The notes beneath the pieces were generated by a model. The model saw only the letters and a list, made by a program, of their open reading frames with translations, was not told the DNA's origin and made no database searches. Below, piece by piece: positions 24,241 to 61,904 of a DNA stretch of 64,000 nt (the stretch's first letter is position 1; each line of letters starts with the position of its first letter). This stretch comes from Ranitomeya imitator. Its lineage: Eukaryota. The stretch lies in contig NC_091283.1 in assembly GCF_032444005.1 (NCBI RefSeq), positions 510,322,001 to 510,386,000 of the forward strand, in the 5' to 3' direction. A program made the position numbers and the translations under genes.

Positions 24241-24649
24241 ATAGATGCAGGGTCTGATGTCCTGTGAGGAGCTGCAGTGAGGTCGGAGCAGCACAGAGAT
24301 TCTCCCCCATCCCCCTCTGTTACCTCTCTGCAGCTCCAGATAAGAGGACATCAGACCCCAGCACTTCAGACTCTCTAGCGATCCTAGAGATTCAGCCACA
24401 CACCAGGCAGCAGAGGACAGGGAACGGCAGCTGATAGGGTGCATACTAAAACCCTATGTGCCAAATTAACCTATACCTATGGTAGATATTTTAGTCGTAT
24501 TCATCTATACCTCTGCCTATTTTAGATTTTTTTTTACAGTATCATTTTCTTAATTTAGTTTTCCTTTCCACTTCACTCCATTTGAAGCAGAGTAACAAAT
24601 TTATTTACATAAAGTTGCAATACATGAATGTAGGGGTTACATTTTTTGG

Positions 24650-25105
24650 AAACGGAATAAAGGTTTTGAGCTCCGTTTTTTTTATTGGAATATGTTCATA
24701 TTAGTACAACAATGTTATCTTCCAAGTTTCATTAGGATCCTTTTAGAGATTCAGTCTTTATGCACCATATTCTTCCATACCTATGCCTAGTGTGTTATCA
24801 CGGTTGGAAACGGAAAAACGGTTTTGAGCTCCGTTTTTTTATTGGGATAAGTTCATATTAGTACAACAACGTTATCTTCCAAGTTTCATTAGGATCTTTT
24901 TAGGGATTCAGTCTTTATGCGCCATATTCTTCCATACCTATGCCTAGTGTGTTATCACGGTTGGAAACGGAAAAACGGTTTTGAGCTCCGTTTTTTTTAT
25001 TGGAATATGTTCATATTAGTACAACAACGTTATCTTCCAAGTTTCATTAGGATCTTTTTAGGGATTCAGTCTTTATGCGCCATAATCTGCCATACCTATG
25101 CCTAT
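24650..25105 (-). repeat. About 3 copies of the 158-bp satellite unit (left arm)
   Basis: Reverse complement of the 37.7-41.2-kb array unit. Confidence 0.9.
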
Positions 25106-25805
25106 AGTAGTTTTTTTTTCTAAAGTTGAATTTTTTGAATCTATTTTTCCTTTCCACTTCACTCTATTTAAAAATAAATTAGCGGAGGTTAAACTTTAAT
25201 TGCGTTTTCAACAAGGCAAACCCATACATTTCTATATAGTAACTTTACATTTGAAATAAACACTGAATCCCGAAGAAGATCTTGATGAAACTTTGAAAAT
25301 AAGTTTGTCATTAATATGAACTTTTTCCAGCAAGAAAAACAGAGCTTAAAAATGTAATTCTGTTTTCAACAATGTTAATTCATACATTCCTATATAATAA
25401 CTTTACATTTCAAATAAACAGTGAATCCCTAAGTAGATCTTTATCGAAAATTTTTGCCTTAGGCCGGCATCACACTAGCGGACGTATGAGCGGTGCAGAA
25501 AATACGGATTGCATACGGTACAATGATTCTCTATGCCCCAGCTCCTATCTGCCGTATTTTACTGATCCGTATTATACGGTCTTCTACGGCCGTAGAAAAT
25601 CGCAGCATGCTGCGTTTGTCACCGTATTGCGTAAAAAAAATCCGCCAATGAAAGTCTATGGGGGCCAGAAAAATACGGATTACACACGGACCAGCAGTGT
25701 GACTTGCGAGAAATACGCAGCGGTGTTAGCGAGAAAAGCCGGCAATTCAGTGCTGTGTACAGTAAAATCACACTGACAGCTTACATTAGAATAAATGTCT
25801 ACACA

Positions 25806-25848
<43 letters not shown>

Positions 25849-25860
25849 CATACACACACA

Positions 25861-26945
25861 CTAGATGGTGGCCCGATTCTAACGCATCGGGTATTCTAGA
25901 ATATGCATGTCCACGTAGTACATTGCCCAGCCACGTGGTATATTGCCCAGCCGCGTAGTATATTGCACAGCCCACGTAGTATATTGCCCAGTCACATAGT
26001 ATACTGCCCAGCCACGTAGTATACTGCCCAGCCACGTAGTATATTGCCCAGCCACGTAGTATACTGCCCAGCCGCGCAGTATACTGCCCAGCCACATAGT
26101 ATATTGCCCAGCCCACGTACTATATTGCCCAGCCACGTACTATATTGCCCAGCCACATACTATATTGCCCAGCCACGTACTATATTGCCCAGCCACGTAC
26201 TATATTGCCCAGCCACGTACTATATTGCCCAGCCACGTATTACATTGCCCAGCCCACGTAGTATATTGCCCAGCCAGGTTTGTCACATTTTAAAAAAAAA
26301 ATATATACTCACCTTTCTGAGGGCCCTTTGTAGTCAACGGCAGCTTCCTTTCCCAGGGTTGGTATGAGCGCAGGGCCTGTGATGACGTCGCAGTCACATG
26401 TCCGTGACGTCATGGCAGGTCCTTCTCCCATACCATCTTTGCCACCGGAACCTGCAGCGGAAGATGACGGCCAGCGCGAGCGACTACGGAGGGTGAGTAT
26501 AGCAGTTTTTTTTTTATTATTATTTTTAACATTACAACTTTTTACTATTGACACTGCCTATGCGGCATCAATAGTAAAACATGTAATGTTAAAGGGAACC
26601 TGTCACCTGAATTTGGCGGGACTGGTCTTGGGTCATATGGGCGGAGTTTTCGGGTGTTTGATTCACCCTTTCCTTACCCGCTGGCTGCATGCTGGCTGCA
26701 ATATTGGATTGAAGTTCATTCTCTGTCCTCCATAGTACACGCCTGCACAAGGCGAGTATATATTTATTTTTTATTTTTTAAAATGTGACAAACCTGGCTG
26801 GGCAATATACTACGTGGCTGGGCAATATACTACGCGGCTGGCCAATATAGTACGTGGGCTGGGCAATATACTACGTGGGCTGTGCAATATACTACGTGGA
26901 CATGCATATTCTAGAATACCCAAAGCGTTAGAATCGGGCCACCAT

Positions 26946-27034: not shown

Positions 27035-27461
27035 TCTAGGGATTCCACTCACTCAGGTGCGATGGCTGACACTCAGGAGGCACGTTCCTTTAAAGTTCAC
27101 TGGGTTTATGGCTTCATAAACCATATGGCAAAACAACAGAAAACAAATAGCCTTTGGTTCAGGCAAAGAAAAACAAGTGTCCAGTTCATCCGGCTCAGTC
27201 CTGAAGCCTTGACACACTCAGGAGGGTTTCACCTCCACACATATCTACTGTGTTAAGCATTAGCCTGTCTTATATAGGACTAACCACACCCAGTAATCTA
27301 TCACATGATCAGCCATGTGGTCTGACATCACCACAGGTCCTGAAACACATATATATACATGGTTATGTAAAACAAAGAAATATTCCAGGCTACATTACAG
27401 CGACAAGGTACCTATGTGACACATACCTCCCGTCGACCACACACCCGTTAGCCATGCTACA
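27035..27461 (-). repeat. 3' LTR of the Gmr1-like element
   Basis: Matches 35979-36405 with 4 differences seen by eye; preceded on minus by PPT GGCAGAGGGGGGAGGTA. Confidence 0.95.
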
Positions 27462-30400
27462 TACCTCCCCCCTCTGCCTAAAGCCGTGGGGCTTGGCACT
27501 TTCCCCAACCAAACAAGGGATTCTTGATAGGGCATCCGCATTACCGTGCAGCTTTCTGGCCTTATGTTCCACATGGAAACTAAAGTCCTGCAGGGCTAAG
27601 AACCAACGGGTTACCCTAGCATTCTTACCCTTTGTTTCCCTCATCCATCTAAGTGGGGCATGGTCAGATATTAGTCTGAATTTACGACCCAGCAGATAGT
27701 ACCGTAACGTGTCCACCGCCCACTTTATGGCCAAACACTCTTTTTCCACGACTGAGTAGTTCTTCTCAGATGAGGACAGCTTTCTACTCAGATAGAGAAC
27801 GGGATGCTCCTCCCCATGTAGCTCTTGGGAAAGGACTGCTCCTACCCCAGCATCTGAGGCATCTGTCTGAAGAATAAATTCTTTCTTGAAGTCTGGGGCT
27901 ATCAGAACGGGCTGCTTACATCGAGCCCCTTTCAACTCTTGGAAGGCTGACTGTCTCTTCGGACCATTTAACCATCACTGACTTTGTCCCCTTCAGCAGA
28001 TCAGTCAGAGGCGCAGCCACTGTGGCGAAGTTCGGGATGAACCTCCTGTAATATCCCACGATTCCCAGAAAGGCTTTAACTTGCTTTTTTGAAACTGGTT
28101 TCGGCCACGTTTGGATTGCCTCCACTTTCCTGATTTGGGGCTTTATTTCTCCACGACCCACTATATAGCCTAGGTATTTAGCTTCTTCCTTACCCAAGGC
28201 ACACTTCTTCGGGTTCACTGTAAACCCCGCCTCTCTTAGAGCATCAAACACCGCTTGGACTTTCTCCAGATGACTCTCCCAGTCCGGGCTAAAGATGACC
28301 ATATCATCTAGGTACGCAGCAGCGTAGGCCTTATGGGGTGCAAGGACTCTATCCATAGCCCTCTGGAAGGTCGCCGGAGCTCCCTGTAGGCCAAACGGCA
28401 TCCGGACATACTGGAAGCATCCATCAGGTGTCGAAAAGGCCGTCTTCTCCTTGGCTTCCTGTGCCATGGGGATCTGCCAATACCCCTTTGTCAAATCCAA
28501 GGTGGATATATATCTAGCGTGCCCAAGCCTTTCGATGAGCTCATCAACGCGGGGCATGGGATAAGCGTCAAACTTGGAGACCTCATTCAACTTCCGATAG
28601 TCATTGCAAAACCTCCACTCTCCATCAGGTTTTGAGACCAGGACAATTGGGCTCGACCAACCGCTCTTGGATTCCTCAATGACTCCAAGCTTCAACATAC
28701 GCTCCACTTCCTTGGAGATAACTTCTTGACGAGCCTCAGGAATACGATAGGGCTTCACGTTCACCCGCACATGTGGCTCTGTTAGAACCTCGTGCTCTAT
28801 GACCTTCGTGTGTCCTGGCAACTCTGAAAACAGGTCCCTGTTTTTCTGGAGTAACTCCCGGCACTGCTGTTTCTGGTTCTTCGATAGCGTCTCTGCTATA
28901 GTAACAGCTCCAACCTCACCTTCTGGGTTGCTTAACAACGATAGAGTTACTGTCGGCTCTCTATCTTGCCACGGCTTGATGAGGTTGACATGGTAAACTT
29001 GGAATGGTTTCCGTCTTCCTGGTTGGTGAATTTTATAATTTACCTCACCAAGTTTCTCGACAACCTCATATGGCCCTTGCCATTTGGCCAAGAACTTGCT
29101 TTCCACCGTCGGAACTAACACAAGAACTCGGTCTCCCGGATTGAACTGCCTCACTCTTGCAGACCGGTTGTAGACCCTGGCCTGAGCTTCTTGTGCTTGG
29201 AGAAGGTGATCTTTCACGATAGGCATCACCTTTGCAATCCTCTGCTGCATCAGGGCCACATGCTCAATGACGCTTCTCTGGGGCGTGACTTCGCCTTCCC
29301 AGGTTTCCTTGGCTATATCCAGGAGTCCTCGTGGATGTCGGCCATATAGAAGCTCAAACGGTGAGAACCCTGTGGAGGCCTGTGGAACTTCACGAATGGA
29401 AAACATCAGATAGGGTAAGAGACAATCCCAGTCTCTACCGTCTTTCTCTATAGCTTTTCTCAGCATGCTCTTCAGTGTCTTGTTAAATCTCTCAACAAGG
29501 CCATCTGACTGGGGATGGTGCACCGAGGTCCTCAACTGGGAGATTTTCAGGGCTTTGCATAACTCCCTCATCACCTTGCTCATGAAAGGTGTACCCTGGT
29601 CAGTCAGGATCTCCTTCGGCAGACCTGTCCGGGAAAAGACATGGACCAACTCGCAGGCTATGCTCTTTGAGGATGAATTTCTCAAGGGAATTGCCTCAGG
29701 ATAGCGTGTGGCATAGTCCAGGATGACTAATATATACTGATGGCCCCGAGCTGATTTAACTAAGGGACCGACCAAGTCCATGGCAATTCTCTCGAACGGT
29801 ACCTCAATAATGGGCAGTGGCACAAGGGGGTTCCCGAAATGAGGAGTGGGAGCAGTTAGCTGACATGTAGGGCAGGACCTGCAATAGTTCACTATTTCCC
29901 GGTGACACCCAGGACAATAGAACCTCTGCACAACCCGTTCCTGCGTTTTTTCCGCCCCTAGGTGTCCACCCAAGATGTGTGAATGGGCCATGTCCAACAC
30001 CTTCCGTCTATACGGACCCGGCACTACCAACTGCTCTACCAACTCCTCCCTTATTTTCGTGACCCGGTACAACAACTCCCCACTCATCAGAAAATGGGGA
30101 AATCTTGTGTCTGCCCCCGGCTCCTGTACCACCCCGTCAATAACTGTGACATTATTAAAGGCTTCCCTTAGAGTGGGGTCCCTATGTTGGGCAGTCCCAA
30201 AATTTTCACCGGATACCTCTAACTCCAGAATGTCAGATGCAGGGGACACTTCCTCGTCATCTCCAACCAGGACACAAAAAGGAAACCTGTCTGACTCTGG
30301 GTGTGGCGACACCCTTCCAGGGTTCATTGGTTCCCTACTCTTGCTAGGGAGCTCAGAACCTTTCCCCCACAAATCCCAAAACAAACAGAAATCCCGGCCA

Positions 30401-30509
30401 ATAATTATAGGGTGCAACAAGTCCTGAACGACGCCGACTATGTGGGACTCAGTGCCACATGCCGTTTCAATGTCCACCCTGGCCATAGGGTAGTCCTTTG
30501 CATCACCAT
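27390..30509 (-). pseudogene. Gmr1-like pol: protease C-terminus, integrase, RT, RNase H; frameshift near 27955
   Basis: HSHILGGH...CRSCPTC zinc finger, FERIAMDLVGPL core, then HEVLT...PYRIP, AAYLDDMVIFS, FILQTDASDAGVGAVLSQ; a 2-bp deletion splits ETESAFQELKG. Confidence 0.93.
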
Positions 30510-30617
30510 AACATACATAGTAACATAGTTAGTAAGGCCGAAAAAAGACATTTGTCCATCCAGTTCAGCCTATATTCCATCATAATAAATCCCCAGATCT
30601 ACGTCCTTCTACAGAAC

Positions 30618-33524
30618 CTAATAATTGTATGATACAATATTGATCTGCTCCAGGAAGACATCCAGGCCTCTCTTGAACCCCTCGACTGAGTTCGCCATCA
30701 CCACCTCCTCAGGCAAGCAATTCCAGATTCTCACTGCCCTAACAGTAAAGAATCCTCTTCTATGTTGGTGGAAAAACCTTCTCTCCTCCAGACGCAAAGA
30801 ATGCCCCCTTGTGCCCGTCACCTTCCTTGGTATAAACAGATCCTCAGCGAGATATTTGTATTGTCCCCTTATATACTTATACATGGTTATTAGATCGCCC
30901 CTCAGTCGTCTTTTTTCTAGACTAAATAATCCTAATTTCGCTAATCTATCTGGGTATTGTAGTTCTCCCATCCCCTTTATTAATTTTGTTGCCCTCCTTT
31001 GTACTCTCTCTAGTTCCATTATATCCTTCCTGAGCACCGGTGCCCAAAACTGGACACAGTACTCCATGTGCGGTCTAACTAGGGATTTGTACAGAGGCAG
31101 TATAATGCTCTCATCATGTGTATCCAGACCTCTTTTAATGCACCCCATGATCCTGTTTGCCTTGGCAGCTGCTGCCTGGCACTGGCTGCTCCAGGTAAGT
31201 TTATCATTAACTAGGATCCCCAAGTCCTTCTCCCTGTCAGATTTACCCAGTGGTTTCCCGTTCAGTGTGTAATGGTGATATTGATTCCCTCTTCCCATGT
31301 GTATAACCTTACATTTATCATTGTTAAACCTCATCTGCCACCTTTCAGCCCAAGTTTCCAACTTATCCAGATCCATCTGTAGCAGAATACTATCTTCTCT
31401 TGTATTAACTGCTTTACATAGTTTTGTATCATCTGCAAATATCGATATTTTACTGTGTAAGCCTTCTACCAGATCATTAATAAATATGTTGAAGAGAACA
31501 GGTCCCAATACTGACCCCTGCGGTACCCCACTGGTCACAGCGACCCAGTTAGAGACTATACCATTTATAACCACCCTCTGCTTTCTATCACTAAGCCAGT
31601 TACTAACCCATTTACACACATTTTCCCCCAGACCAAGCATTCTCATTTTGTGTACCAACCTCTTGTGCGGCACGGTATCAAACGCTTTGGAAAAATCGAG
31701 ATATACCACGTCCAATGACTCACCGTGGTCCAGTCTATAGCTTACCTCTTCATAAAAACTGATTAGATTGGTTTGACAGGAGCGATTTCTCATAAACCCA
31801 TGCTGATATGGAGTTAAACAGTTATTCTCATTGAGATAATCCAGAATAACATCCCTCAGAAACCCTTCAAATATTTTACCAACAATAGAGGTTAGACTTA
31901 CTGGCCTATAATTTCCAGGTTCACTTTTAGAGCCCTTTTTGAATATTGGCACCACATTTGCTATGCGCCAGTCCTGCGGAACAGACCCTGTCGCTATAGA
32001 GTCACTAAAAATAAGAAATAATGGTTTATCTATTACATTACTTAGTTCTCTTAGTACTCGTGGGTGTATGCCATCCGGACCTGGAGATTTATCTATTTTA
32101 ATCTTATTTAGCCGGTTTCGCACCTCTTCTTGGGTTAGATTGGTGACCCTTAATATAGGGTTTTCATTGTTTCTTGGGATTTCACCTAGCATTTCATTTT
32201 CCACCGTGAATACCGTGGAGAAGAAGGTGTTTAATATGTTAGCTTTTTCCTCGTCATCTACAACCATTCTTTCCTCACTATTTTTTAAGGGGCCTACATT
32301 TTCAGTTTTTATTCTTTTACTATTGATATAGTTGAAGAACAGTTTGGGATTAGTTTTACTCTCCTTAGCAATGTGCTTCTCTGTTTCCCTTTTGGCAGCT
32401 TTAATTAGTTTTTTAGATAAAGTATTTTTCTCCCTATAGTTTTTTAGAGCTTCAGTGGTGCCATCCTGCTTTAGTAGTGCAAATGCTTTCTTTTTACTGT
32501 TAATTGCCTGCCTTACTTCTTTGTTTAGCGACATTGGGTTTTTCCTATTTCTAGTCCTTTTATTCCCACAAGGTATAAACCGCTTACACTGCCTATTTAG
32601 GATGTTCTTAAACATTTCCCATTTATTATCTGTATTCTCATTTCTGAGGATATTGTCCCAGTCTACCAGATTAAGGGCATCTCTAAGCTGTTCAAGCTTT
32701 GCCTTCCTAAAGTTCAATGTTTTTGTGACTCCCTGACAAGTCCCCCTAGTGAAAGACAGGTGAAACTGCACAATATTGTGGTCGCTATTTCCTAAATGCC
32801 CAACCACCTGCAGATTTGTTATTCTGTCAGGTCTATTAGATAGTATTAGGTCTAAAAGTGCTGCTCCTCTGGTTGGATTCTGCACCAATTGTGAAAGATA
32901 ATTTTTCTTGGTTATTAGCAGAAACCTGTTGCCTTTATGGGTTTCACAGGTTTCTGTTTCCCAGTTAATATCCGGGTAGTTAAAGTCCCCCATAACCAGG
33001 ACCTCATTATGGGTTGCAGCTTCATCTATCTGCTTTAGAAGTAGACTTTCCATGCTTTCTGTTATATTTGGGGGTTTGTAACAGACCTCAATGAGAATTT
33101 TGTTACCATTTTTCCCTCCATGAATTTCAACCCATATGGACTCGACATCCTCATTCCCTTCGCTAATATCCTCCCTTAAAGTGGACTTTAGACAAGACTT
33201 TACATAGAGACAAACCCCTCCTCCTCTCCGATTTTTACGATCCTTTCTAAACAGACTGTAACCCTGTAAGTTAACTGCCCAGTCATAGCTTTCATCTAAC
33301 CATGTCTCGGTTATTCCCACTATGTCAAAGTTACCTGTAGATATTTCTGCTTCTAGTTCTTCCATCTTGTTTGTCAGGCTTCTGGCGTTTGCGAGCATGC
33401 AGTTTAGAGGATTTTGTTTTGTTCCAATCTCCTCACTGTGGATTGTTTTAGAAATGTTCTTACCTCCCTTCTGAGTATGTTTTCCTGGGTCGTCTTTGTT
33501 CGAGTCTAATGTTTTTCTTCCCAT
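30618..33524 (-). CDS. CR1 ORF2: APE endonuclease plus reverse transcriptase (about 968 aa from ATG 33524)
   Basis: Uninterrupted ORF; NARSL, GITETW, MGDFNYPDINW, SDHNIV, YLDFSKAFDTVPH, GVPQGSVLGP, FADDTKL. Confidence 0.95.
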   Translation of the reverse strand: MGRKTLDSNKDDPGKHTQKGGKNISKTIHSEEIGTKQNPLNCMLANARSLTNKMEELEAEISTGNFDIVGITETWLDESYDWAVNLQGYSLFRKDRKNRRGGGVCLYVKSCLKSTLREDISEGNEDVESIWVEIHGGKNGNKILIEVCYKPPNITESMESLLLKQIDEAATHNEVLVMGDFNYPDINWETETCETHKGNRFLLITKKNYLSQLVQNPTRGAALLDLILSNRPDRITNLQVVGHLGNSDHNIVQFHLSFTRGTCQGVTKTLNFRKAKLEQLRDALNLVDWDNILRNENTDNKWEMFKNILNRQCKRFIPCGNKRTRNRKNPMSLNKEVRQAINSKKKAFALLKQDGTTEALKNYREKNTLSKKLIKAAKRETEKHIAKESKTNPKLFFNYINSKRIKTENVGPLKNSEERMVVDDEEKANILNTFFSTVFTVENEMLGEIPRNNENPILRVTNLTQEEVRNRLNKIKIDKSPGPDGIHPRVLRELSNVIDKPLFLIFSDSIATGSVPQDWRIANVVPIFKKGSKSEPGNYRPVSLTSIVGKIFEGFLRDVILDYLNENNCLTPYQHGFMRNRSCQTNLISFYEEVSYRLDHGESLDVVYLDFSKAFDTVPHKRLVHKMRMLGLGENVCKWVSNWLSDRKQRVVINGIVSNWVAVTSGVPQGSVLGPVLFNIFINDLVEGLHSKISIFADDTKLCKAVNTREDSILLQMDLDKLETWAERWQMRFNNDKCKVIHMGRGNQYHHYTLNGKPLGKSDREKDLGILVNDKLTWSSQCQAAAAKANRIMGCIKRGLDTHDESIILPLYKSLVRPHMEYCVQFWAPVLRKDIMELERVQRRATKLIKGMGELQYPDRLAKLGLFSLEKRRLRGDLITMYKYIRGQYKYLAEDLFIPRKVTGTRGHSLRLEERRFFHQHRRGFFTVRAVRIWNCLPEEVVMANSVEGFKRGLDVFLEQINIVSYNY

Positions 33525-33535
33525 CCCCTCTTCTT

Positions 33536-34489
33536 CTAGTTTAACGCCCTCCTGATGAGTGTAGCGAGTCTTCTGGCGAATGTGTGTTTCCCAGGTTTGT
33601 TGAGGTGTAGTCCGTCTCTGGCGAGGAGTCCATCGTACAAGTAATTCACACCGTGGTCCAGGAATCCGAATCCTTGTTGTCTGCACCATCGTCTTAGCCA
33701 GTTGTTTGCATCAAGGATCCTGTTCCATCTCCTGGTGCCATGCCCATCTACTGGAAGGATAGAAGAAAAAACTACCTGTGCATCCAGTTCCTTTACTTTC
33801 TTCCCCAACTCTTCAAAGTCCTTGCAGATTGTCGGTAGGTCCTTCCTTGCCGTGTCATTGGTGCCAACATGTATCAGAAGAAATGGGTGGACGTCCTTGG
33901 AGCTGAAGAGCTTTGGTATCCTATCGGTCACATCCTTGATCATCGCACCTGGAAGGCAGCATACTTCTCTTGCAGTTATGTCCGGTCTGCAGATGGCTGC
34001 TTCTGTGCCTCTCAGTAGTGAGTCTCCCACCACCACCACTCTTCGTTGCTTCTTGGCTGTACTTTTTGCTGTCACTTGTTGCTGTGTGCCCTTTTCTTTT
34101 TTGCTTGCTGGTATTGCTTCATTCTTAGGTGTGCCATCTTCATCCTCTACAAAGATTTGATATCGGTTCTTCAGTTGTGTGGTTGGTGATTTCTCCATGG
34201 TCTTCTTGCTTCTTTTGGTCACATGCTTCCACTCATCTGCTTTTGGAGGTTCTCTGACACTTTTTGCACCTTCTGTGACCAGTAGAGATGCTTCTGTTCT
34301 GTCTAGAAAGTCTTCATTCTCTTTGATGAGTTTCAAAGTTGCTATTCTTTCTTCCAGACCCCGCACCTTTTCTTCTAAAAGGGCCACTAGTCTACACTTC
34401 TGACAGGTGAAATTGGATTCTTCTTCTGGTCGATCTGTGAACATGTAGCACATGCTGCAGCTCACCATGTAGGTTGTCACATCTGCCAT
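33536..34489 (-). CDS. CR1 ORF1 (317 aa): zinc-finger-like/coiled-coil N-terminus plus SGNH esterase domain
   Basis: CSMC...CQKC, leucine heptads, VVVGDSLLRG, IHVGTND, DGLHLN. Confidence 0.92.
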   Translation of the reverse strand: MADVTTYMVSCSMCYMFTDRPEEESNFTCQKCRLVALLEEKVRGLEERIATLKLIKENEDFLDRTEASLLVTEGAKSVREPPKADEWKHVTKRSKKTMEKSPTTQLKNRYQIFVEDEDGTPKNEAIPASKKEKGTQQQVTAKSTAKKQRRVVVVGDSLLRGTEAAICRPDITAREVCCLPGAMIKDVTDRIPKLFSSKDVHPFLLIHVGTNDTARKDLPTICKDFEELGKKVKELDAQVVFSSILPVDGHGTRRWNRILDANNWLRRWCRQQGFGFLDHGVNYLYDGLLARDGLHLNKPGKHTFARRLATLIRRALN

Positions 34490-34723
34490 GTTGCTCCTAG
34501 ATCCTGCTGACTTGCTGTGTGTTTTCCTTCTTGTGTAATCTACTCAGCCAAGCTCTCTTGCAATAATGTCCTACAGGCAAAAATTTTACGGCGCGCGGTT
34601 TGGTGATGCTTTCGAAGCAGCTGGTCCCGGCTGTACCCAACGATCTTCTAGCTTAGGGAGACTTCGCTTCTCCCAGAAGGCACCTGGAATATGCAAATTA
34701 GCCTCCTGAAGCTTGAATCCCTG

Positions 34724-35875
34724 GTATGCACCGCACTCCGACCTTCTTTCCTGGGAGCAGGTGGAGAGGAAAAGTGGCCCTCACCAGGGTCACTAGGCTC
34801 CCCGAGTCTAACAGTGCCGTTACTGCTCGACCGTTCACCTTTACGGGAAACGCTAGAGGTCCCTCGTTGGATGGAGAGTTCACACTACAGGCTGGATACG
34901 CATAGTATGAACAACGGCGTCCCATGCTGCAATCCATCTGCTCAGTGGTCTGGGAACAACGGGCAGCTATATGTCCTGGCCCGTGGCACCTCCAACAAAT
35001 AATATCACCCGTAGGGACCTTGGGCACCACCTCCCCCGCCCTTTGTGACCTTGGATGCACCACCCCTTTTTGGGACTCAGCTCCCTTCTGGGACCCCCAG
35101 TACGGCATGGGCTGCCTCCCGAAGGAGCCTTCCAACCCTTGGTATCTCTCAACCAGTCCGATCAGCTCGTCGGCATTCTGGGGATCACCCTGGGCAACCC
35201 AAGACTGTATAGGCCTCGGGAGGGAATGTACAAACCGATCCATCATCACCCGTTCTACCATCTGTGCAGGAGTAGATGACTCTGGCTGCAGCCATTTCTG
35301 GACCAGGTGCAACAGATCAAACATTTGGGAACGAGGTGGTTTGTCCCGGTGATAGGCCCAGCAGTGAACTCGCTGTGCCCTGACAGTCAGTGTCACCCCA
35401 AACGTGCGAGAATCTCGGCTTTCAATTTGTGATACTCTTTGGCATCCTGCAAGGTCAAGTCATAGTACGCCTTCTGGGGTTCTCCCGTCAGGTATGGCGC
35501 CAATACCTCTGCCCACTGCTCTGGCGGAAGTTTTTCCCTCTCAGCGACCCTCTCAAACACCGTCAGGAATGCCTCAACATCATCCCCGGGGGTCATTTTC
35601 TGCAATGTGCATCTTACCGTCTTCCGGACGTGGGTGTCATCAGCCAGACCTGGGGTTGGGGAGCTCATCTTGCCCTGGATGGCGGTTGCCAGAAGCTGCA
35701 TCTGCTGCCGTTGCTCCTGCTGGCTTTGTTGCATCTGCTGCCGTTGCTCCTGCTGGCTCTGTTGTATCTGCTGCATCAACAGCCTGTTGGTCTCTTGCTG
35801 CCTTTGCTCCTGCTGGCTCTGCCGTTGCTCCTGCTGTGACTGTAACTGAACCAAGTGTTTCAGCAGGTCCTCCAT
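34724..35875 (-). pseudogene. Gmr1-like gag (SCAN-like domain, CCHC knuckle) and protease N-half; frameshift near 35398
   Basis: MEDLLKHL, Q-rich repeats, QKMTPGDDVEAFLTVFER, WLQPESSTPAQMVERVMMDRF, CWRCHGPGHIAARC, ALLDSGSLVTLV. Confidence 0.9.
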
Positions 35876-35954
35876 TTTCCCCGGCGATGCTTGCTGGCTT
35901 GCAACAGACTTGACCCAGGACATTAAACAATAGACTTACGTCTCTGCTGGGAAC

Positions 35955-36405: not shown

Positions 36406-37669
36406 ATATATATATATATTATATATCTCCCTATACTATGTGTAGACATTTATTTTAGCTATTCTATTGTAAGCTGTCAGTGTGATTTTACTGTACACCG
36501 CACTGAATTGCCGGCTTTTGTCTCTGAGGCCGGCGTCACACTCGGCGTAAGACAATACGGTCCATATATTACGGCCGTAATACGCTGAAAAGTCCCCAAA
36601 ATAGTGGTCCGTAGCTCCTCCGTAGGCAAAGTGTATCATCATAATTGACGCCTCTCCATTATTAATCTGGCTTAATGTCACCTTACAATAGCAAGGTGGC
36701 ATTAACCCTTCATTACCCCATATCCCACCGCTACACGGGAATGGGAAGAGAGTGGCCAAGTGCCAGAATAGGCGCATCTTCCAGATGTGCCTTTTCTGGG
36801 GTGGCTGGGGGCAGGTGTTTTTAGCTGGGGGGGGGGGGGAGGGGGCAGTAATCATGGACCCTCTCCAGGCTATTAATATCTGCCCTCAGTCACTGGCTTT
36901 ACTACTCTGGCTGAGAAAATTGCGCGGGAGCCCACGCCAATTTTTTCCGCCATTTAACCCTTTATTTTAATAGCTAAATTTTGCATATACACACTACTAA
37001 CATTAGTAGTGTGGAATATGCAAAAAAAAGGTGATATGAGATGGTTTACTGTATGTAAACCATGTCTCATATCATGTCGGGTTTTAGGAAGGAGATAGCA
37101 AAAGCCGGTAATTGAATTACCGGCTTTAAAGCTATCTATCGCTGTATGAAGTAATAATATATATACATATATGTGTCTACTGATATATATATATATATAT
37201 ATATATATACAGTATATATGTTTTTGGTTTTTTTTACACATGGATCCCTTGTATAGCCGTGTGTTGGTTTTGCAAGCCTGCGAGAAAAACACGCAGTACG
37301 GATGACATACGGATTACATACGGAGGATGCCATGCGCAAAAAACGCTGACACACCCTGCCTACGGAGGAGATACGGACCACTATTTTGGGGACTTTTCAG
37401 TGTATTACGGCCGTAATATACGGACCGTATTGTCTTATGCTGAGTGTGACTCCAGTCTTAATGACAAACTTATTTTCAAAGTTTCATCAAGATCTTCTTA
37501 GGGATTCAGTGTTTATTTCAAATGTAAAGTTACTATATAGAAATGTATGGGTTTGCCTTGTTGAAAACGCAATTAAAGTTTAACCTCCGCTAATTTATTT
37601 TTAAATAGAGTGAAGTGGAAAGGAAAAATAGATTCAAAAAATTCAACTTTAGAAAAAAAAACTACTATA

Positions 37670-40600
37670 GGCATAGGTATGGCAGATTATGGCGCATAAA
37701 GACTGAATCCCTAAAAAGATCTTAATGAAACTTGGAAGATAACGTTGTTGTACTAATATGAACTAATTCCAATAAAAAAAATGGAGCTCAAAACCGTTTT
37801 TCCGTTTCCAACCATGATAACACACTAAACATAGGTATGGAAGATCAAGCAACGAAGAAGAAAGGAAAGGCGGCACTCACAGATCCATTCCGAGCGGTTT
37901 TTCCGTTTCCAACCATGATAACACATTAGGCATAGGTATGGCAGAATATGGCGCATACAGACTGAATCCCTAAAAAGATCCTAATGAAACTTGGAAGATA
38001 ACGTTGTTGTACTAATATGAACTTATTCCAATAAAAAAACGGAGCTCAAAACCGTTTTTCCGTTTCCACCCGTGATAACACACTAGGCATAGGTATGGAA
38101 GAATATGGCGCATAAAGACTGAATCCCAAAAAATATCTTAATGAAACTTGGAAGATAATGTTGTTGTACTGATATGAACATATTCCAATAAAAAAAAACG
38201 GAGCTCAAACCCGTTATTCCGTTTCTAACCGTGATAACATACTAGGCATAGGTATGGCAGAATATGGCGCATAAAGACTGAATCCCTAAAAAGATCCTAA
38301 TGAAACTTGGAAGATAACGTTGCTGTACTAATATGAACTAATTCCAATAAAAAAAACGGAGCTCAAAACCGTTTTCCCGTTTCCAACCATGATAACACAC
38401 TAGGCATAGGTATGGAAGAATATGGCGCTTAAAGACTGAATCCCTAAAAAGATCCTAATGAAACTTGGAAGATAACGTTGTTGTACTAATATGAACATAT
38501 TCCAATAAAAAAAACGGAGCTCAAACCCGTTATTCCGTTTCTAACTGTGATAACATACTAGGCATAGGTATGGCAGAATATGGCGCATAAAGACTGAATC
38601 CCTAAAAAGATCCTAATGAAACTTGGAAGATAACGTTGTTGTACTAATATGAACTAATTCCAATAAAAAAACGGAGCTCAAAACCGTTTTTTCCGTTTCC
38701 AACCATGATAACACTGGAGGCATAGGTATGGCAGAATATGGCGCATAAAGACTAAATCCCTAAAAAGATCTTAATGAAACTTGGAAGATAACGTTGTTGT
38801 ACTAATATGAACTAATTCCAATAAAAAAAACGGAGCTCAAAACCGTTTTTCCGTTTCCAACCATGATAACACACTAGGCAAAGGTATGGAAGAATATGGC
38901 GCTTAAAGACTGAATCCCTAAAAAGATTCTAATGAAACTTGGAAGATAACGTTGTACTAATATGAACTTATTCCAATAACAAAAATGGAGCTCAAAACCG
39001 TTTTTCCGTTTCCAACCATGATAACACACAAGGCATAGGTATGGCAGAATATGGCACATAAAGACTGAATCCCTAAAAAGATCCTAATGAACCTTGGAAG
39101 ATAACGTTGTTGTACTAATATGAACATATTCCAATAAAAAAAACGGAGCTTAAAATCGTTATTCCGTTTCCAACCGTGTTAACACACTAGGCATAGGTAT
39201 GGCAGAATATGGCGCATAAAGACTGAATCCCTAAAAAGATCCTAATGAAACTTGGAAGATAACGTTGTTGTACTAATATGAACTTATTCCAATAAAAAAA
39301 CGGAGCTCAAAATCGTTTTACCGTTTCCAACCATGATAACACACTAAACATAGGTATGGAAGATCAAGCAACGAAGAAGAAAGGAAAGGCGGCACTCACA
39401 GATCCATTCCGAGCGGTAACTTTATTGCTTAAAAAGCCATCACAGCCGGGGGTACTGAACAAACAGTGCGGCAAGCCTGACGACGGCCGTTTCACGCCCT
39501 CCTGGCGCTTCTACGGAGCTCAAAACCGTTTTTCCGTTTCCAACCATGATAACACACTAGGCATAGGTATGGCAGAATATGGCGCATAAAGACTGAATCC
39601 CTAAAAAGATCCTAATGAAACTTGGAAGATAACGTTGTTGTACTAATATGAACTAATTCCAATAAAAAAAACGGAGCTCAAAACCGTTTTTCCGTTTCCA
39701 ACCGTGATAACACACTAGGCATAGGTATGGCAGAATATGGCGCATAAAGACTGAATCCCTAAAAAGATCTTAATGAAACTTGGAAGATAACGTTGTTGTA
39801 CTAATATGAACTAATTCCAATAAAAAAAAACGGAGCTCAAAACCGTTATTCCGTTTCTAACTGTGATAACATACTAGGCATAGGTATGGCAGAATATGGC
39901 GCATAAAGACTGAATCCCTAAAAAGATCCTAATGAAACTTGGAAGATAACGTTGTTGTACTAATATGAACTAATTCCAATAAAAAAACGGAGCTCAAAAC
40001 CGTTTTTCCGTTTCCAACCATGATAACACTGGAGGCATAGGTATGGCAGAATATGGCGCATAAAGACTAAATCCCTAAAAAGATCTTAATGAAACTTGGA
40101 AGATAACGTTGTTGTACTAATATGAACTAATTCCAATAAAAAAAACGGAGCTCAAAACCGTTTTTCCGTTTCCAACCATGATAACACACTAGGCAAAGGT
40201 ATGGAAGAATATGGCGCTTAAAGACTGAATCCCTAAAAAGATCCTAATGAAACTTGGAAGATAACGTTGTTGTACTAATATGAACTTATTCCAATAAAAA
40301 AAACGGAGCTCAAAACCGTTTTTCCGTTTCCAACCATGATAACACACTAGACATAGGTATGGAAGAATATGGCGCATAAAGACTGAATCCCTAAAAAGAT
40401 TCTAATGAAACTTGGAGGATAACGTTGTACTAATATGAACTTATTCCAATAAAAAAAATGGAGCTCAAAACCGTTTTTCCGTTTCCAACCATGATAACAC
40501 ACTAGGCATAGGTATGGCAGAATATGGCACATAAAGACTGAATCCCTAAAAAGATCCTAATGAACCTTGGAAGATAACGTTGTTGTACTAATATGAACAT

Positions 40601-41165
40601 ATTCCAATAAAAAAAACGGAGCTTAAAATCGTTATTCTGTTTCCAACCGTGTTAACACACTAGGCATAGGTATGGCAGAATATGGCGCATAAAGACTGAA
40701 TCCCTAAAAAGATCCTAATGAAACTTGGAAGATAACGTTGTTGTACTAATATGAACTTATTCCAATAAAAAAACGGAGCTCAAAACCGTTTTACCGTTTC
40801 CAACCATGATAACACACTAAACATGGGTATGGAAGATCAAGCAACGAAGAAGAAAGGAAAGGCGGCACTCACAGATCCATTCCGAGCGGTAACTTTATTG
40901 CTTAAAAAGCCATCACAGCCGGGGGTAATGAACAAACAGTGCGGCAAGCCTGACGACGGCCGTTTCACGCCCTCCTGGCGCTTCTACGGAGCTCAAAACC
41001 GTTTTTCCGTTTCCAACCATGATAACACACTAGGCATAGGTATGGCAGAATATGGCGCATAAAGACTGAATCCCTAAAAAGATCCTAATGAAACTTGGAA
41101 GATAACGTTGTTGTACTAATATGAACTAATTCCAATAAAAAAAACGGAGCTCAAAACTGTTATTC
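37670..41165 (+). repeat. About 158-bp satellite array (about 22 units) with a 1473-bp higher-order repeat
   Basis: GAAACTTGGAAGATAA recurs at 37986, 38143, 38302, 38460, 38618; variant units with a foreign insert at 37845, 39364, 40837. Confidence 0.95.
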
Positions 41166-41166
41166 G

Positions 41167-41553
41167 TAACACTCAGCGACGCTGCAGCGATATAGACAAC
41201 GATCCGACCTAAACTAGATCGCAGGAGCGTCGCTGTTTAGGTCGCTGTAGAGACGTCAAACACAGCAACTCCAGAATGATGCAGGAGCGATCCAGTGACG
41301 TAACGGCGACTCACTTATCGTTCTCGCTCCATGTAAAAACGTTGCTGGCATCGTTGCTTTTGATGTCAAACATGACGATACACGCCGACCTGACGACCAA
41401 ATAAAGTTCTGGCCTTCTAGCTCCGACCAGCGATGGCACAGCGGGATCCAGATCGCTGCTGCGTGTCAAACACAACGAGATCGCTATCCAGGACGCTGCA
41501 ACGTCACGGATCGTTGTCGTTCTCGTTGCAAAGTTGCTGAGTGTGACAGTACC
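41167..41553. mobile_element. Harbinger-type MITE, left end truncated
   Basis: Right end GTTGCTGAGTGTGACAGTACC; left CACTCAGCGACGCTGCA abuts the satellite end. Confidence 0.65.
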
Positions 41554-41663
41554 TTTAAGATATGCCCCAGCTAGCATGTCCACTTACTCTGCATTCTGTG
41601 GTTGCTAGGGTACTGGATGTGTGAGAGGAGGGTTTATAAACTATCTCAAGGTAGACAATATTA

Positions 41664-41963
41664 GGCTAGGTTCACATTGCGTTACGGCAATCCATTTAGC
41701 GCTAAGCGCTAGCGGATTGCGCTAATGCAATGTCTTTTTAGGGGTCGCGTTAAACGTCCCTGCTAGCGCTAGCTGCAAGCAGCGTCCGAGGCACGCCACA
41801 AAAGAACGGCACATCGCTAGCGCGTGCCGAAAATGGCACGCGCTAGCAATGCGCTTTAACATTGCTGGCAATGGGAGCGCTACCGGACGCGTTGCACGGC
41901 GTTAATTTCGCCGTGCAACGCTGTCTGTTAGCGCTCACCCGAAAACGAAATGAGAACCTAGCC
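41664..41963. mobile_element. Harbinger-type MITE with the same 5' TIR as the element at 57178
   Basis: TTA|GGCTAGGTTCACATTGCG...TGAGAACCTAGCC|TTA. Confidence 0.88.
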
Positions 41964-43782
41964 TTAATATTATCTCACTCAAAACATCCCCCTCCCTCTC
42001 TCAGTTCAGGTACACAGAGAAGGGAGTTGTAAGGCTATGTGCACACGTTCAGTAAAAACGTGAAAAAAACGCTTACATATGGTTCCCAATCATTTCAATG
42101 TAATCCGCAAAACGTGCAAATGTTGCGATTTTTTTCCGCAAAAAAAAAAACCATGTTCATTAATTTTGCGGAATCGCTGATTTCCCACACACTGTAAAAA
42201 ATCTACCATTGGTATAGACAAATATGACTAAAAAAATTTACCATAGGCATAGGTAAAATCTACCATAGGCATAGGTATAGACAAATATATAAAAAAAAAC
42301 CATGTTCATTAATTTTGCGGAATCGCTGATTTCCCGCACACTGTAAAAAATCTACCATTGGTATAGACAAATATGACTAAAAAAATTTACCATAGGCATA
42401 GGTAAAATCTACCATAGGCATAGGTATAGACAAATATGTCACATAGGGTTTTAGTATTTTCCAGCTGACAGTGTGAGGGGAGACAGATGGAGCTGCTCCT
42501 CCAACAGCACAGCTCAGTCACAGTGGAGCTCACAGTCAGGTACACTCCATTGTAGGCTGAAGCAAGATGGCGCCGATCTCCTGCCTCTGCTGTGATGTGG
42601 AGACAGCCCAGGGGGCGTGGCCACATCAGAGCAGAGAGCAGACAATGCTAGCTATGGGGTCGCCTCCCGACTACAGATGTCTATGTCCAGGGCTGCCGTA
42701 TGTGAAGACTGTAAGTGTCGTGCAGCTACACTTACAGTCCTGCAAATGAAAATGGCGGCGCCCAGTGGCAGAAAAAAAAATGAATAAAAAAAAAACAATA
42801 AATACTATGCACTTGAAAATAACTTATAAAAATAAGCAATTAAAGAGGTTTTTTTTTTTTTACAATATTAAAACGCGGCACCTTCCCTTTAATGTCACTG
42901 GGTAACTTTTTTTGCACTGTTTTTGCACTTTACCTACGCCTTGTAATTTTTCCTGCCTTAGTATTTTTTCTTTGCCATAGGCTTATTTGTCCGCACCTTT
43001 TTTCCTATAACAGGGTGTATTAGGGACAGACAACTAGAGCAGGGGCGCCATTTGCGCAGGATTATAGGGTGCCAACCCCCGCAGGCAGGTAGGACGCATC
43101 TAGGTATAGTACAGGGGTATAGGCTGAATTGCCTCAGTATAGGCCAAAATAAACGTGCAATACATAATATAAGTGTGTTACATCGTTATATATTTCAAAA
43201 ACACACTTTTGCACAGGCCTTAATGTATATCCCATTTTCAATATTGATTACATGTGCAACATATTACAAAAAGTGTGCAACATTGTTACTTTTTCCATTT
43301 AGCACACTTTTGCACAATTTATGGAATCTTTGTTCTAGTGACATTTGTTTGTCTGTCTGAAATGTATGGTCTGCTGTTTGTTGTTTTTTCTATTTTCCGC
43401 ACGATAGGGCCTATTAGGGACAGTTAGGGCTAGCCTACGTTGAGCATGGGCGCCATTGGGCAGGTTTATAGGGTGCCAACCTCTGCTGCAAGGTAGGGCA
43501 CAGATAGTTGGCCCTTTAGGGATTTAGTGCACCCTGTATCTTTGTTTGCAGCCATACGTGTTTTAGGTCGTGTATGTTGTATTGTTTTGTTTTAGTAATA
43601 ACAAGTAAATGTTAAGTTTTATTGTGGTCATTTACTTTATCGTGTAATAGTGTCATTTGTCGGTGAGCATCTGACACCAACCACTATATGTATCTTTTAA
43701 AAAGAACTAAATAACTCAACAAAGTAATGTACCAGCCTGGAAGATTTGCAAACAGAATATTTAATTCAGTGATAACTAGGAT

Positions 43783-54678: not shown

Positions 54679-57174
54679 GTACCCCCCCTTGAGGAGGGGT
54701 CACCGAACCCTCACCAGAGCCCCCAGGCCGATCAGGACGAGCCAAATGAAAGGCACGAACTAGATCGGCAGCATGAACATCAGAGGCAAAAACCCAGGAA
54801 TTATCTTCCTGACCATAACCCTTCCACTTGACCAGGTACTGGAGCTTCCGTCTCGAAATACGAGAATCCAAAATCTTCTCCACCACATACTCCAACTCCC
54901 CCTCGACCAACACCGGGACAGGAGGATCAACGGAGGGAACCATAGGCGCCACGTATCTCCGCAATAACGACCTATGGAACACATTATGGATGGCAAAAGA
55001 AGCTGGAAGGGCCAAATGAAATGACACAGGATCGAGAACTTCAGAAATCTTATACGGACCAATGAAACGAGGCTTAAACTTAGGAGAGGAAACCTACATA
55101 AGAACATGACGAGACGACAACTAAACCAAATCCCCAACACGAAGTCGGGGACCAACACAGCACCGGCGGTTAGCGAAACGTTGAGCCTTCTCCTGGGACA
55201 ATGTCAAATTATCCACCACATGAGTCCAAATCTGCTGCAACCTGTCCACCACAGTATCCACACCAGGACAGTCCGAAGACTCAACCTGCCCTGAAGAGAA
55301 ATGAGGATGGAAACCAGAATTACAGAAAAAGGGCGAAACCAAAGTAGCCGAGCTGGCCCGATTATTAAGGGCGAACTCAGCCAAAGGCAAGAAGGACACC
55401 CAATCATCCTGATCAGCAGAAACAAAGCATCTCAGATATGTTTCCAAAGTCTGATTAGTTCGTTCGGTTTGGCCATTTGTCTGAGGATGGAAAGCCGAAG
55501 AAAAAGACAAATCAATGCCCATCTTAGCACAAAAGGACCGCCAAAACCTCGAAACGAACTGGGAACCTCTGTCCGAAACGATGTTCTCCGGAATGCCATG
55601 CAAACGAACCACATGCTGGAAAAACAATGGCACCAAATCAGAGGAGGAAGGCAATTTAGACAAGGGTACCAAATGGACCATCTTAGAGAAGCGATCACAA
55701 ACCACCCAAATGACTGACATCCTTTGAAAGACAGGGAGATCTGAAATAAAATCCATGGAAATATGCGTCCAGGGCCTCTTCGGGACCGGCAAGGGCAAGA
55801 GCAACCCACTGGCACGAGAACAGCAGGGCTTAGCCCGAGCACAAGTCCCACAGGACTGCACAAAAGAACGCACATCCCGTGACAAAGAAGGCCACCGAAA
55901 GGATCTAGCCACCAAATCTCTGGTACCAAAGATTCCTGGATGACCCGCTAACACCGAACAATGAACCTCAGAGATAACTCTACTAGTCCATCTATCAGGG
56001 ACAAACAGTTTCTCCGCTGGACAACGGTCAGGTCTATCAGCCTGAAATTTCTGCAGCACACGCCGCAAATCAGGGGAGATGGCAGACAAAATTACCCCCT
56101 CTTTGAGAATACCTGCTGGCTCAGGAACATCCGGAGAGTCAGGCACAAAACTCCTTGACAGGGCATCAGCCTTCACATTCTTAGAGCCCGGAAGGTACGA
56201 AACCACAAAATCGAAACGGGAGAAAAACAGCGACCATCGAGCCTGTCTAGGATTCAACCGTTTGGCAGACTCGAGATAAGTCAAATTCTTGTGATCGGGA
56301 AGACCACTACGCGATGCTTGGCTTCTTCAAGCCAATGTCGCCACTCCTCGAATGCCCACTTCATGGCCAACAATTCTCGATTGCCAACATCATAATTGCG
56401 CTCAGCAGGTGAAAATTTTCTAGAAAAGAAGGCACATGGTTTCATCACCGAGCAATCAGAACTTCTCTGCGACAAAACAGCCCCTGCTCCAATCTCAGAA
56501 GCATCAACCTCGACCTGAAACGGAAGTGAAACATCTGGCTGGCACAACACAGGGGCAGAAGAAAAACGACGCTTCAACTCCTGAAAAGCCTCTACAGCCG
56601 CAGAGGACCAATTGACCACATCAGCACCTTTCTTGGTCAAATCAGTCAACGGTTTAGCAACACTCGAAAAATTAGCGATGAAGCGACGGTAAAAATTAGC
56701 AAAGCCCAGGAACTTCTGCAGGCTCTTCACAGATGTCGGCTGAGTCCAATCATAAATGCCCTGAACTTTAACAGGGTCCATCTCGATAGTAGAAGGTGAA
56801 AAAATGAAACCCAAAAATGAAACCTTCTGAACTCCAAAGAGACACTTTGACCCCTTCACAAACAAGGAATTCACACGAAGGACCTGGAACACCATTCTGA
56901 CCTGCCTCACATGAGACCATGAGACTCCCAATCATCCGAAAAGACCAAAATATCATCCAAATACACAATCATGAATCTATCCAGGTACTCTCGGAAGATG
57001 TCATGCATAAAGGACTGAAACACAGATGGAGCATTAGAAAGCCCGAATGGCATAACCAGGTACTCAAAATGGCCCTCGGGCGTATTAAATGCTGTTTTCC
57101 ATTCATCGCCCTTTTTAATTCGCACAAGATTATACACCCCTCGAAGATCTATCTTGGTGAACCAACTAGCCCCC
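54671..57174 (-). pseudogene. Chromovirus pol remnant: RT, RNase H, integrase, chromodomain
   Basis: FKTAF-like [52 protein letters not shown]...CGTC, PWTHISMDF, YVVEKILDSR...YLVKWKGYGQEDNSW; several frameshifts. Confidence 0.9.
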
Positions 57175-60271: not shown

Positions 60272-61147
60272 TCACACGTATCTGTCTTGCCATGGAACAT
60301 GGCCTTCATGTGTGAAGTAATGTGCAAATTGATCACGAATCCTCATTATTTGTGCTGTAGACCGAACTGCATTCGATTCAATGCTAATGAGGTTCGACTC
60401 ACAATCATCGGGGTCTACCACCTGGGGTTCATGTCTCGCCACAAAATTATGCAAACAGATGCACGCCTTCACAACACGGTCCACATTTTCTGGTTGCAGT
60501 TGCATGCAGGTTAGTAAAATCCACCATTTTAATGTCAAAATCCCAAAGGCACACTCCACATAACGTCTTGCCCGGCTCAAGCGATAATTAAAAATGCGCC
60601 TGGTGGAGTCTAGACTACGGCTTGAGTACGGCTTGAGGAGATTTTGTCCGAGTTGGAACGCCTCATCACCAACTAAAACATAGGGCAAAGTTGGGCCTTC
60701 GGTCCCCGGAAGAGGTCGTGATGAGGGTATGTTGAAACTTTGGCTGTACAAACATCGGCCCATGTTGGAGTCTCTGAAGACTCTGGAATCGTTAGTCCGG
60801 CCATAAGCACCAATATCCACAGCAACAAAACGGTACCTGGCATCCGCCATCGCCATCAATACTATAGAAAAGTATTTCTTATAGTTATAGTAGAGGGATC
60901 CACTATGCGCAGGTTTCTGAATCCGAATGTGCTTGCCGTCCACGGCACCAATACAATTGGGGAAATTAGCCACATCCTCGAACTGTTGGGAAATCGCTAG
61001 CCACATTTCTGATGTTGGTGTTGGTAGCACAAGTGGTTGCAAGTTGTTCCAAATGGCATCACAAGTTTCCCGAACAAGTTGGCAAATTGTTGACTTCCCA
61101 AGTCTAAACTGATAATGCATTTCAAAAAACCTGATCTGCACATCCAA
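60272..61147 (-). CDS. Harbinger (HARBI1-like) DDE transposase; N-terminus replaced by satellite sequence
   Basis: HYQFRLGKSTI, FPNCIGAVDGKHIRI, YYNYKKYFSIVL, YVLVGDEAF, FNYRLSRARRYVECAFGIL; open 291 aa. Confidence 0.9.
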   Translation of the reverse strand: MDVQIRFFEMHYQFRLGKSTICQLVRETCDAIWNNLQPLVLPTPTSEMWLAISQQFEDVANFPNCIGAVDGKHIRIQKPAHSGSLYYNYKKYFSIVLMAMADARYRFVAVDIGAYGRTNDSRVFRDSNMGRCLYSQSFNIPSSRPLPGTEGPTLPYVLVGDEAFQLGQNLLKPYSSRSLDSTRRIFNYRLSRARRYVECAFGILTLKWWILLTCMQLQPENVDRVVKACICLHNFVARHEPQVVDPDDCESNLISIESNAVRSTAQIMRIRDQFAHYFTHEGHVPWQDRYV

Positions 61148-61903
61148 ACATAGACACAGTGTGAACAGGTGCTGAACCCAGAGTCGCCAACTCGTATATA
61201 TTTAAGTAAATAGGGCAGCACACTGCAGCGCCAAAACATGCAAACTTGAAAACACAAAATTTGAACTGCATTACTGCACTGAAAATATGAAAAATGAGAG
61301 CTTTTAGCGCATAAAAATGGCCAATTTTATGTGTACCTCGTAGCCACGATAAGGCATCTCTCTTATACGAGGCCCTACGCTTGACCTACCTCTCTGAGAA
61401 TAAACGTCTCCATCTGAATGGGTACATGTGAAACCTCTCCTTGGACTCAAATTCTCTCTCACTGTGGAGGGGTATTGGACCTATTATAATTAAAACACCT
61501 GAAGCTAGGAGGCGGGGAGTGCACGATCAGAAGGCTAGAGAATACATTTCAAAAAACCTGATCTGCACATCCAAACATAGACACAGTGTGAACAGGTGCT
61601 GAACCCAGAGTCGCCAACTCGTATATATTTAAGTAAATAGGGCAGCACACTGCAGCGCCAAAACATGCAAACTTGAAAACACAAAATTTGAACTGCATTA
61701 CTGCACTGAAAATATGAAAAATGAGAGCTTTTAGCGCATAAAAATGGCCAATTTTATGTGTACCTCGTAGCCACGATAAGGCATCTCTCTTATACGAGGC
61801 CCTACGCTTGACCTACCTCTCTGAGAATAAACGTCTCCATCTGAATGGGTACATGTGAAACCTCTCCTTGGACTCAAATTCTCTCTCACTGTGGAGGGGT
61901 ATT
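61118..61903 (+). repeat. 427-bp tandem repeat, orientation A (about 1.8 units)
   Basis: CATTTCAAAAAACCTGATC at 61118 and 61545. Confidence 0.95.
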
Positions 61904-61904
61904 A

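Follow-up and report, generated by a model that had tools for sequence, protein, structure and literature searches.

A Penelope-like 3′ end with a hammerhead predicted to be inactive in a 158-bp repeat array of Ranitomeya imitator, and its putatively self-cleaving variant-core parent

Does a tandem array of the frog Ranitomeya imitator that carries the end of a Penelope-like element, with part of a hammerhead ribozyme, catch a ribozyme-bearing satellite at its origin? This question is raised by positions 37670-41165 of the window, by which we mean the whole stretch of 64,000 nucleotides that was analysed (GCF_032444005.1, contig NC_091283.1, positions 510,322,001 to 510,386,000, forward strand), and which a first-pass annotation had read as a higher-order satellite built around a captured ribozyme. 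The reading preferred here, to which we give a probability of about 0.7, is that the insert is a young Penelope-like 3′ end, likely reverse-transcribed once into the 158-bp repeat of a host element and likely copied by unequal exchange; its hammerhead is predicted to be inactive at this locus, helix I being broken, and the intact parent, with a CCGUNGA core, likely cleaves itself in vivo.

The 158-bp array and its host element

The array is bordered on both sides by sequence that recurs elsewhere, including a second time in the window:

37458..37669, plus strand: left flank of the host element, unique sequence, 99.6% identical to window positions 25314-25072 and present in dispersed arrays
37670..41165, plus strand: tandem array of 22 units, about 3.5 kb
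41166..42463, plus strand: right-hand portion of the host element, in which short inverted-repeat elements are nested; identity to two other loci, 85-90%
24438..25461, minus strand: the host element in a second copy, with 3 monomers and free of the insert

The 158-bp monomer is found genome-wide in many short arrays (at least 258 matches, from the 40 of 526 candidates that were scored), and the left flank is common to 20 of the 27 array loci fetched, some of which overlap. Unique flanks held in common with dispersed copies are not those of a satellite, as the array had been called, and they identify it as the internal repeat of a dispersed element. This element has the central tandem repeats, constant flanks and dispersed sites by which HINEs and other non-autonomous Helentrons are recognized, and it resembles the Cg_HINE non-autonomous Helentrons of oyster, described in the available part of PMC7492417 as short dispersed arrays of about 160-bp units with constant flanks and fixed orientation. 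HINEs have subterminal inverted repeats and a 3′ palindrome and insert into T-runs without duplication; the host element has a constant right terminus, common to the seven copies compared, and its left terminus, obscured by nested elements, was not found. At several loci the 158-bp array is adjoined by a block which in the window lies at 25860-26900 and consists of two opposed arrays of 20-bp repeats ending in a hairpin and CTAG. These ends resemble Helitron 3′ ends. Elsewhere in the window, long minus-strand open reading frames at 27393-35935 and 55124-56931 resemble, from their first residues, proteins of LTR- and LINE-type retrotransposons.

Within the array, 18 regular monomers of 155-159 bp are accompanied by two units of 213 bp, one of 101 bp and a cut last unit. 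Both 213-bp units bear the insert and the 101-bp unit bears a part of it, and the offset of 1473 bp between the former corresponds to eight regular units plus one 213-bp unit. Pairwise distances between monomers (m07-m15, 1; m08-m16, 0; m10-m19, 1; m11-m20, 1) reveal a duplicated block in two imperfect copies, of 8 versus 9 units, in which m09 has no single partner and appears as a blend of m17 and m18. The higher-order repeat of the first-pass annotation does not survive this comparison: such satellites iterate a block regularly and many times over a long array, whereas here two unequal copies of one block are contained in 22 units and 3.5 kb. The blocks are a single local duplication and not an iterated higher-order unit. 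Similarly, clear block periodicity was seen in two of ten insert-free sister arrays examined, L135 (lag 12, mean distance 1.3) and L137 (lag 8, mean distance 3.6).

It could be objected that the 1473-bp duplication was produced by misassembly and that only one full insert exists, as the blocks are more than 99% identical near the insert and the public contigs are short, none of them spanning the array. This is extremely improbable: between the two blocks there are nine substitutions and a difference of one whole unit, hardly what a simple collapse or duplication of reads would leave, and a third copy of the insert, differently truncated, is present in the same array.

The insert and its broken hammerhead

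The 149-bp foreign segment which had been located at 39364-39512 and 40837-40985, with an offset of 1473, was confirmed, as was the truncated copy at 37845. With the bases shared at the junctions, the three copies are:

39363..39516, minus strand: insert copy A, a Penelope-like 3′ end with 149 foreign bases, 100% identical over 149 to a dispersed copy
40836..40989, minus strand: insert copy B, 1473 bases downstream of A, with 1 substitution (1 difference in 149 bases)
37845..37898, minus strand: partial copy, a 3′ piece of the last 54 bases, with the 3′ junction identical to that of A and B and the ribozyme part deleted

Copy A replaces 94 bases of a monomer and has no target-site duplication; four bases of microhomology (CCGT, 39513-39516) are found at its 5′ junction and one shared base (39363) at its 3′ junction. 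A target-site duplication of 64 bp as the cause of the 213-bp unit was excluded, the flanks differing at 5 of 64 bases. The 23-mer across the 5′ junction occurs twice in the 5.96-Gb genome, both times in this array, the three copies have one 3′ junction in common, and the insert is absent from the 26 other array loci fetched. These data indicate that insertion into this one array happened once and was followed by local duplication, and amplification of the insert by such duplication had been rightly proposed in the first-pass annotation. Spread of the insert together with the host element is ruled out by the same two counts, of the junction and of the other arrays. The insert is 97-100% identical to dispersed copies, and it ends at the inner of the two preferred 3′ ends of the parent family. 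In a different copy of the host element (L137, about 6200-6500), another short Penelope-like end, with the core CCGTTGA, is found in the left flank, so that Penelope-like insertions recur in this element.

On the minus strand, helix II, GAAA, the palindrome, GTC, AATAAA and GTGAGTGCC read as previously described, and the hammerhead remnants can be placed as follows:

39477..39516, minus strand: hammerhead remnant A, with core CCGTAGA (39516-39510), an extra A, helix II (39508-39494), GAAA (39493-39490) and the palindrome
between 39482 and 39481, minus strand: predicted cut in remnant A, followed by the helix I 3′ strand (39481-39477)
40950..40989, minus strand: hammerhead remnant B, with the same helix I defect as remnant A

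The defect differs from the one first proposed, namely loss of a CTGA core at the junction. Intact relatives read CTGAC, CCGTAGA, A and helix II, where CTGAC supplies the 5′ strand of helix I, paired with GTCAG. It is this strand that is missing, while CCGTAGA still stands at 39516-39510 because monomer and element both have CCGT. In the array copies, the helix I 5′ strand is monomer sequence, and its five positions would form U-G, C×U, G-C, A×A and G×G, i.e., one wobble, one pair and three mismatches. The copies are predicted to be inactive because helix I is broken, and they are probably dead. Searches with Rfam gave no hammerhead match, neither in the array (E up to 10) nor across the whole window.

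A captured ribozyme in the course of amplification into a higher-order satellite, showing how ribozyme satellites begin, would nevertheless account for three copies from one insertion and for the duplication of a 1473-bp block, and satellite-like arrays related to Penelope ends have been documented (bioRxiv 10.64898/2026.07.22.740005, in the part available). The locus also has in common with non-LTR retrozymes and newt satellite 2 that a type I hammerhead sequence derived from Penelope is contained in a tandem amphibian repeat (PMC7229834; bioRxiv 10.64898/2026.07.22.740005). The likeness ends there. In retrozymes, as described in the accessible text of PMC7229834, the motif is intact in every unit, and at least two units in succession can be expected to hold a complete hammerhead, whereas in this array two of 22 unrelated units, nine units apart, carry the motif as a passenger, broken and without helix I in both. 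By the genome-wide junction count and the 26 other array loci fetched, it has not spread beyond this locus, and the block periodicity of L135 and L137 arose in arrays free of the insert. In fact, the search suggested earlier for arrays with an intact canonical core was productive: such arrays are present in this genome, the motif being repeated at a spacing of 353-384 bp and the whole motif standing in each unit. By their sequence these are true retrozyme-type arrays, intact hammerheads in tandem arrays being the route described for retrozymes (bioRxiv 10.64898/2026.07.22.740005; PMC7229834, both in part). The canonical-core pattern has 26,125 matches in the genome versus 524 in the control. 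Satellite birth at this locus is thus largely refuted and very improbable, and the "snapshot" of the first-pass annotation is better described as an ordinary nested insertion, one local duplication and a disabled ribozyme.

Among the first matches listed, canonical-core hammerheads recur at spacings of 353, 357 and 384 bp, often as inverted blocks. A 427-bp repeat at window positions 61111-64000, whose copies are 100% identical and lie head-to-head around 61904, interrupts a transposase-like open reading frame (61201-60275) in a layout that recalls retrozyme arrays; no hammerhead was found in it by a relaxed pattern or by Rfam.

The parent element and its variant core

The first-pass view that the insert comes from the end of a Penelope-like element with a minimal type I hammerhead is supported by the dispersed copies, by the open reading frame upstream and by the homologues of the latter. 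In parent copies, a coding sequence for reverse transcriptase (RT) and GIY-YIG endonuclease (EN) ends about 550 bases upstream of the ribozyme motif on the same strand. Its open stretch of 545 codons contains YVDD and VYVVFCECGRFYIG, a linker motif CGHCSFC at residue 398 (CxxCxxC), CEC inside the GIY-YIG motif and RFREH downstream. Internal cysteines of the GIY-YIG domain are a feature of EN+ Penelope-like elements, and the linker motif conforms to the CX2-5CxxC finger between RT and EN that has been described in Neptune and also in Nematis (PMC8557442, in the available excerpts). Homologues carry PF00078 and PF01541, the closest named ones being from frogs; direct Pfam matching was weak (RVT_1, E 0.028, for one piece and none for a longer piece), and a sequence search of the PDB with this reading frame gave no match. 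From these motifs, the parent is assigned to the EN+ Penelope-like elements, probably of Neptune type.

Copies of the parent family are 5′-truncated and occur in tandem and often as inverted pairs. Their 3′ ends cluster near reference positions 4480-4498 and 4614-4616, which matches Poseidon from the green anole, where reverse transcription starts at either of two internal sites and a "tail" results (PMC11167929, in part). At L066, L088, L093 and L130, several short solo copies lie between target-site duplications in direct orientation, about 6-13 bases long; some of these overlap the 3′ end of the element, and this overlap suggests priming by short complementarity. At L021-L022 (C2:338479339-338496446), four near-identical units of 4277 bp each combine a decayed fragment of another RT sequence with a truncated, frameshifted copy of the parent family (family 1 below), and at L027 another family-1 copy sits inside a repeat related to the 427-bp repeat of the window.

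The intact parent motif consists of CTGAC, CCGTAGA, A, GCGCC-loop-GGCGT, GAAA, CGGCCG, TC and GTCAG. In place of CUGANGA, both the family and the insert have CCGUNGA (U4C plus A6U). A genome search with this variant core retrieved at least 5,181 exact matches and none with the reversed control, and 6,181 matches when loop III was left free. Pieces of related reading frames lie near many of the 30 motif loci fetched. Core position 7 takes all four bases in these loci (A14, T6, C6, G4) and is alone free, C3-G8, G5, A9, GAAA and UC all being kept, although the search pattern fixed most core letters and their conservation is not independent evidence. Pairs 2-4 of helix II, which the pattern left open, are formed in 71 of 72 cells by 24 distinct, covarying stems; shuffling gave a mean of 65.2, and none of 10,000 shuffles reached 71, an outcome that is not a probability, the stems being related and not independent. 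The palindrome of loop III is kept through a double change from GGCC to GATC. Helix I has five pairs in the parent; across families, pair 3 is kept in 22 of 24, and pairing beyond it is weak (pairs 4 and 5 in 15 and 14 of 24, respectively).

In the monomer, the core CCGU is predicted to pair with the palindrome and the active form is not favoured, and in a context of 125 bases the parent is predicted to fold without helix I and without helix II. A core-sequestering switch, in which CCGU would pair with the palindrome half ACGG, is speculation, and stays so because the family with the GATC loop keeps an identical core.

Element-end position, an extra base between positions 9 and 10.1, G10.1-C11.1, GAAA, a palindromic stem III and a short helix I are all in common with the hammerheads of Cervera and de la Peña 2014 (PMC4209133, in the available text). 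These have a CUGANGA core, in contrast to the CCGUNGA found here at thousands of places; the published consensus is CUGANGAH, the descriptor demands "cuganga", and the only core change in the accessible part of that article is U3-A8. Natural variants with U4C or A6C alone are reported to be of low activity, and changes of A6 disrupt the core in published tests (PMC3088659, in part). Rfam gave no hammerhead match in eight intact variant loci (E up to 5). About 150,000 Penelope-associated hammerhead variants are said to have been found by Lunse et al. in 2017. In the literature searched there was no description of a CCGUNGA core, of U4C/A6U variants or of copies starting at the cleavage site, and an earlier one is possible, for instance in Lunse et al. 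2017 or Arkhipova et al. 2017.

5′ ends of genomic copies

If the intact motif cuts its own RNA, some copies could be expected to begin at the cut. The 5′ ends of family 1 were collected non-exhaustively, by means of top hits and exact-match anchors, from 73 sites with 116 arms in all, the 5′-most end being taken per site. Thirty-three lie at 4321-4350, none at 4351-4370 and 12 at 4371-4380, with a mode at 4373, the first base after the predicted cut; one lies at 4433 and 27 are further upstream, while a start at 4371-4372 was seen at a single site. As one of the anchors itself started at 4373, the test was run again with another placed 70 bases downstream. From its 15 matches, cases with indels or substitutions, second arms of longer insertions and the partial copy of this array were set aside; among the seven sites left, which end within 82 positions, six start at 4373-4375 (P about 2e-8). 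In family 2, which is unrelated to family 1, 40 matches gave 31 loci, 12 of which had the upstream motif in the locus and were set aside. Seven of the remaining 19 start exactly at +1 and none in the 10 positions before (P about 2e-7); eight more start at +4 to +7 and four later, which gives the peak a tail.

The two classes of family-1 ends also differ in the base that precedes them, an extra G being present at all eight sites with a start at A4332 and at two of six with a start at 4373 (Fisher P 0.015); in family 2, cut-site starts have it in one of seven. In work on L1 and SVA, an untemplated 5′ G has been read as a copied cap (PMC4859970, in the excerpt available). The simplest reading of these ends is that two RNA 5′ ends were copied, a capped start and an uncapped cut, the uncut RNA being the commoner template; as indirect evidence, they make it likely that the intact motif cuts itself in living cells.

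The same starts at +1 might be left by a structured but non-catalytic descendant of the hammerhead, through pausing of the reverse transcriptase at the palindromic duplex or a cut by a cell nuclease, and the peak is indeed a single base away from the palindrome's 3′ edge. A duplex pause, however, would copy C17, and this base is absent in all six exact family-1 and seven family-2 sites; these starts are defined by that very mismatch, yet only 1 of 73 sites begins at 4371-4372. Pausing would be expected in helix II as well, and none of the sites starts there. Two core positions are off consensus, one of them (A6) thought to be important (PMC3088659, in part), and the predicted folds do not favour the active form, both of which would suit a motif without activity; against this stands the retention of C3-G8, G5, A9, GAAA and UC, position 7 alone being free. 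Loss of catalysis is, on balance, unlikely.

Within the preferred reading of self-cleavage, the capped first base of the transcript would be an A lying one base ahead of helix I, and reverse transcription from an inner site about 160 bases downstream of this start would yield the short solo ends. The cDNA of the insert would have stopped 6-10 bases short of the start (uncut class) and been joined through CCGT, with loss of the 94 monomer bases, and one block duplication, one later deletion of one unit and one partial transfer could have produced the present order of units. A minority of templates, probably dimers formed via the palindrome, would first have been cut at GUC, giving rise to copies that start at the cut. 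In Poseidon, uncleaved RNA is likewise the main substrate, and a protein-assisted ribozyme has been proposed, a likeness to the family studied here. The latter differs by its Neptune-type linker motif, its variant core, its tail of about 125 versus 30-40 bases and its genomic copies beginning at the cut site, Frangieh et al. 2024 having detected no RNA-seq ends at the cut site of the anole element (PMC11167929, in the available part).

Whether a doubly changed CCGUNGA core, missed by published descriptors and Rfam, serves a large radiation of Penelope-like elements in frogs, and whether their copies record a capped start and an uncapped cut as a genome-only readout of germline cleavage, is in our judgement a proposal evenly balanced between true and false. 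If true, the existence of a natural working core changed at U4 as well as A6 would widen the definition of the hammerhead, and surveys demanding CUGANGA would undercount, about 6,200 variant motifs standing here beside about 26,000 matches to the canonical pattern. While the locus itself is ordinary, the variant family bears on the in vivo activity of minimal hammerheads, called "still a mystery" in a 2020 review (PMC7761336, in part). Mapping where short copies begin, and taking the extra G to mark capped ends, gives an inexpensive test for any genome. The parts worth pursuing are the variant core and the 5′-end record, and not the birth of a ribozyme satellite.

In family 2, 138 matches are truncated just upstream of the motif; among the first 100 matches listed, 19 start at the putative start A without the parental T before it, and in 14 of these a G was seen there by eye.
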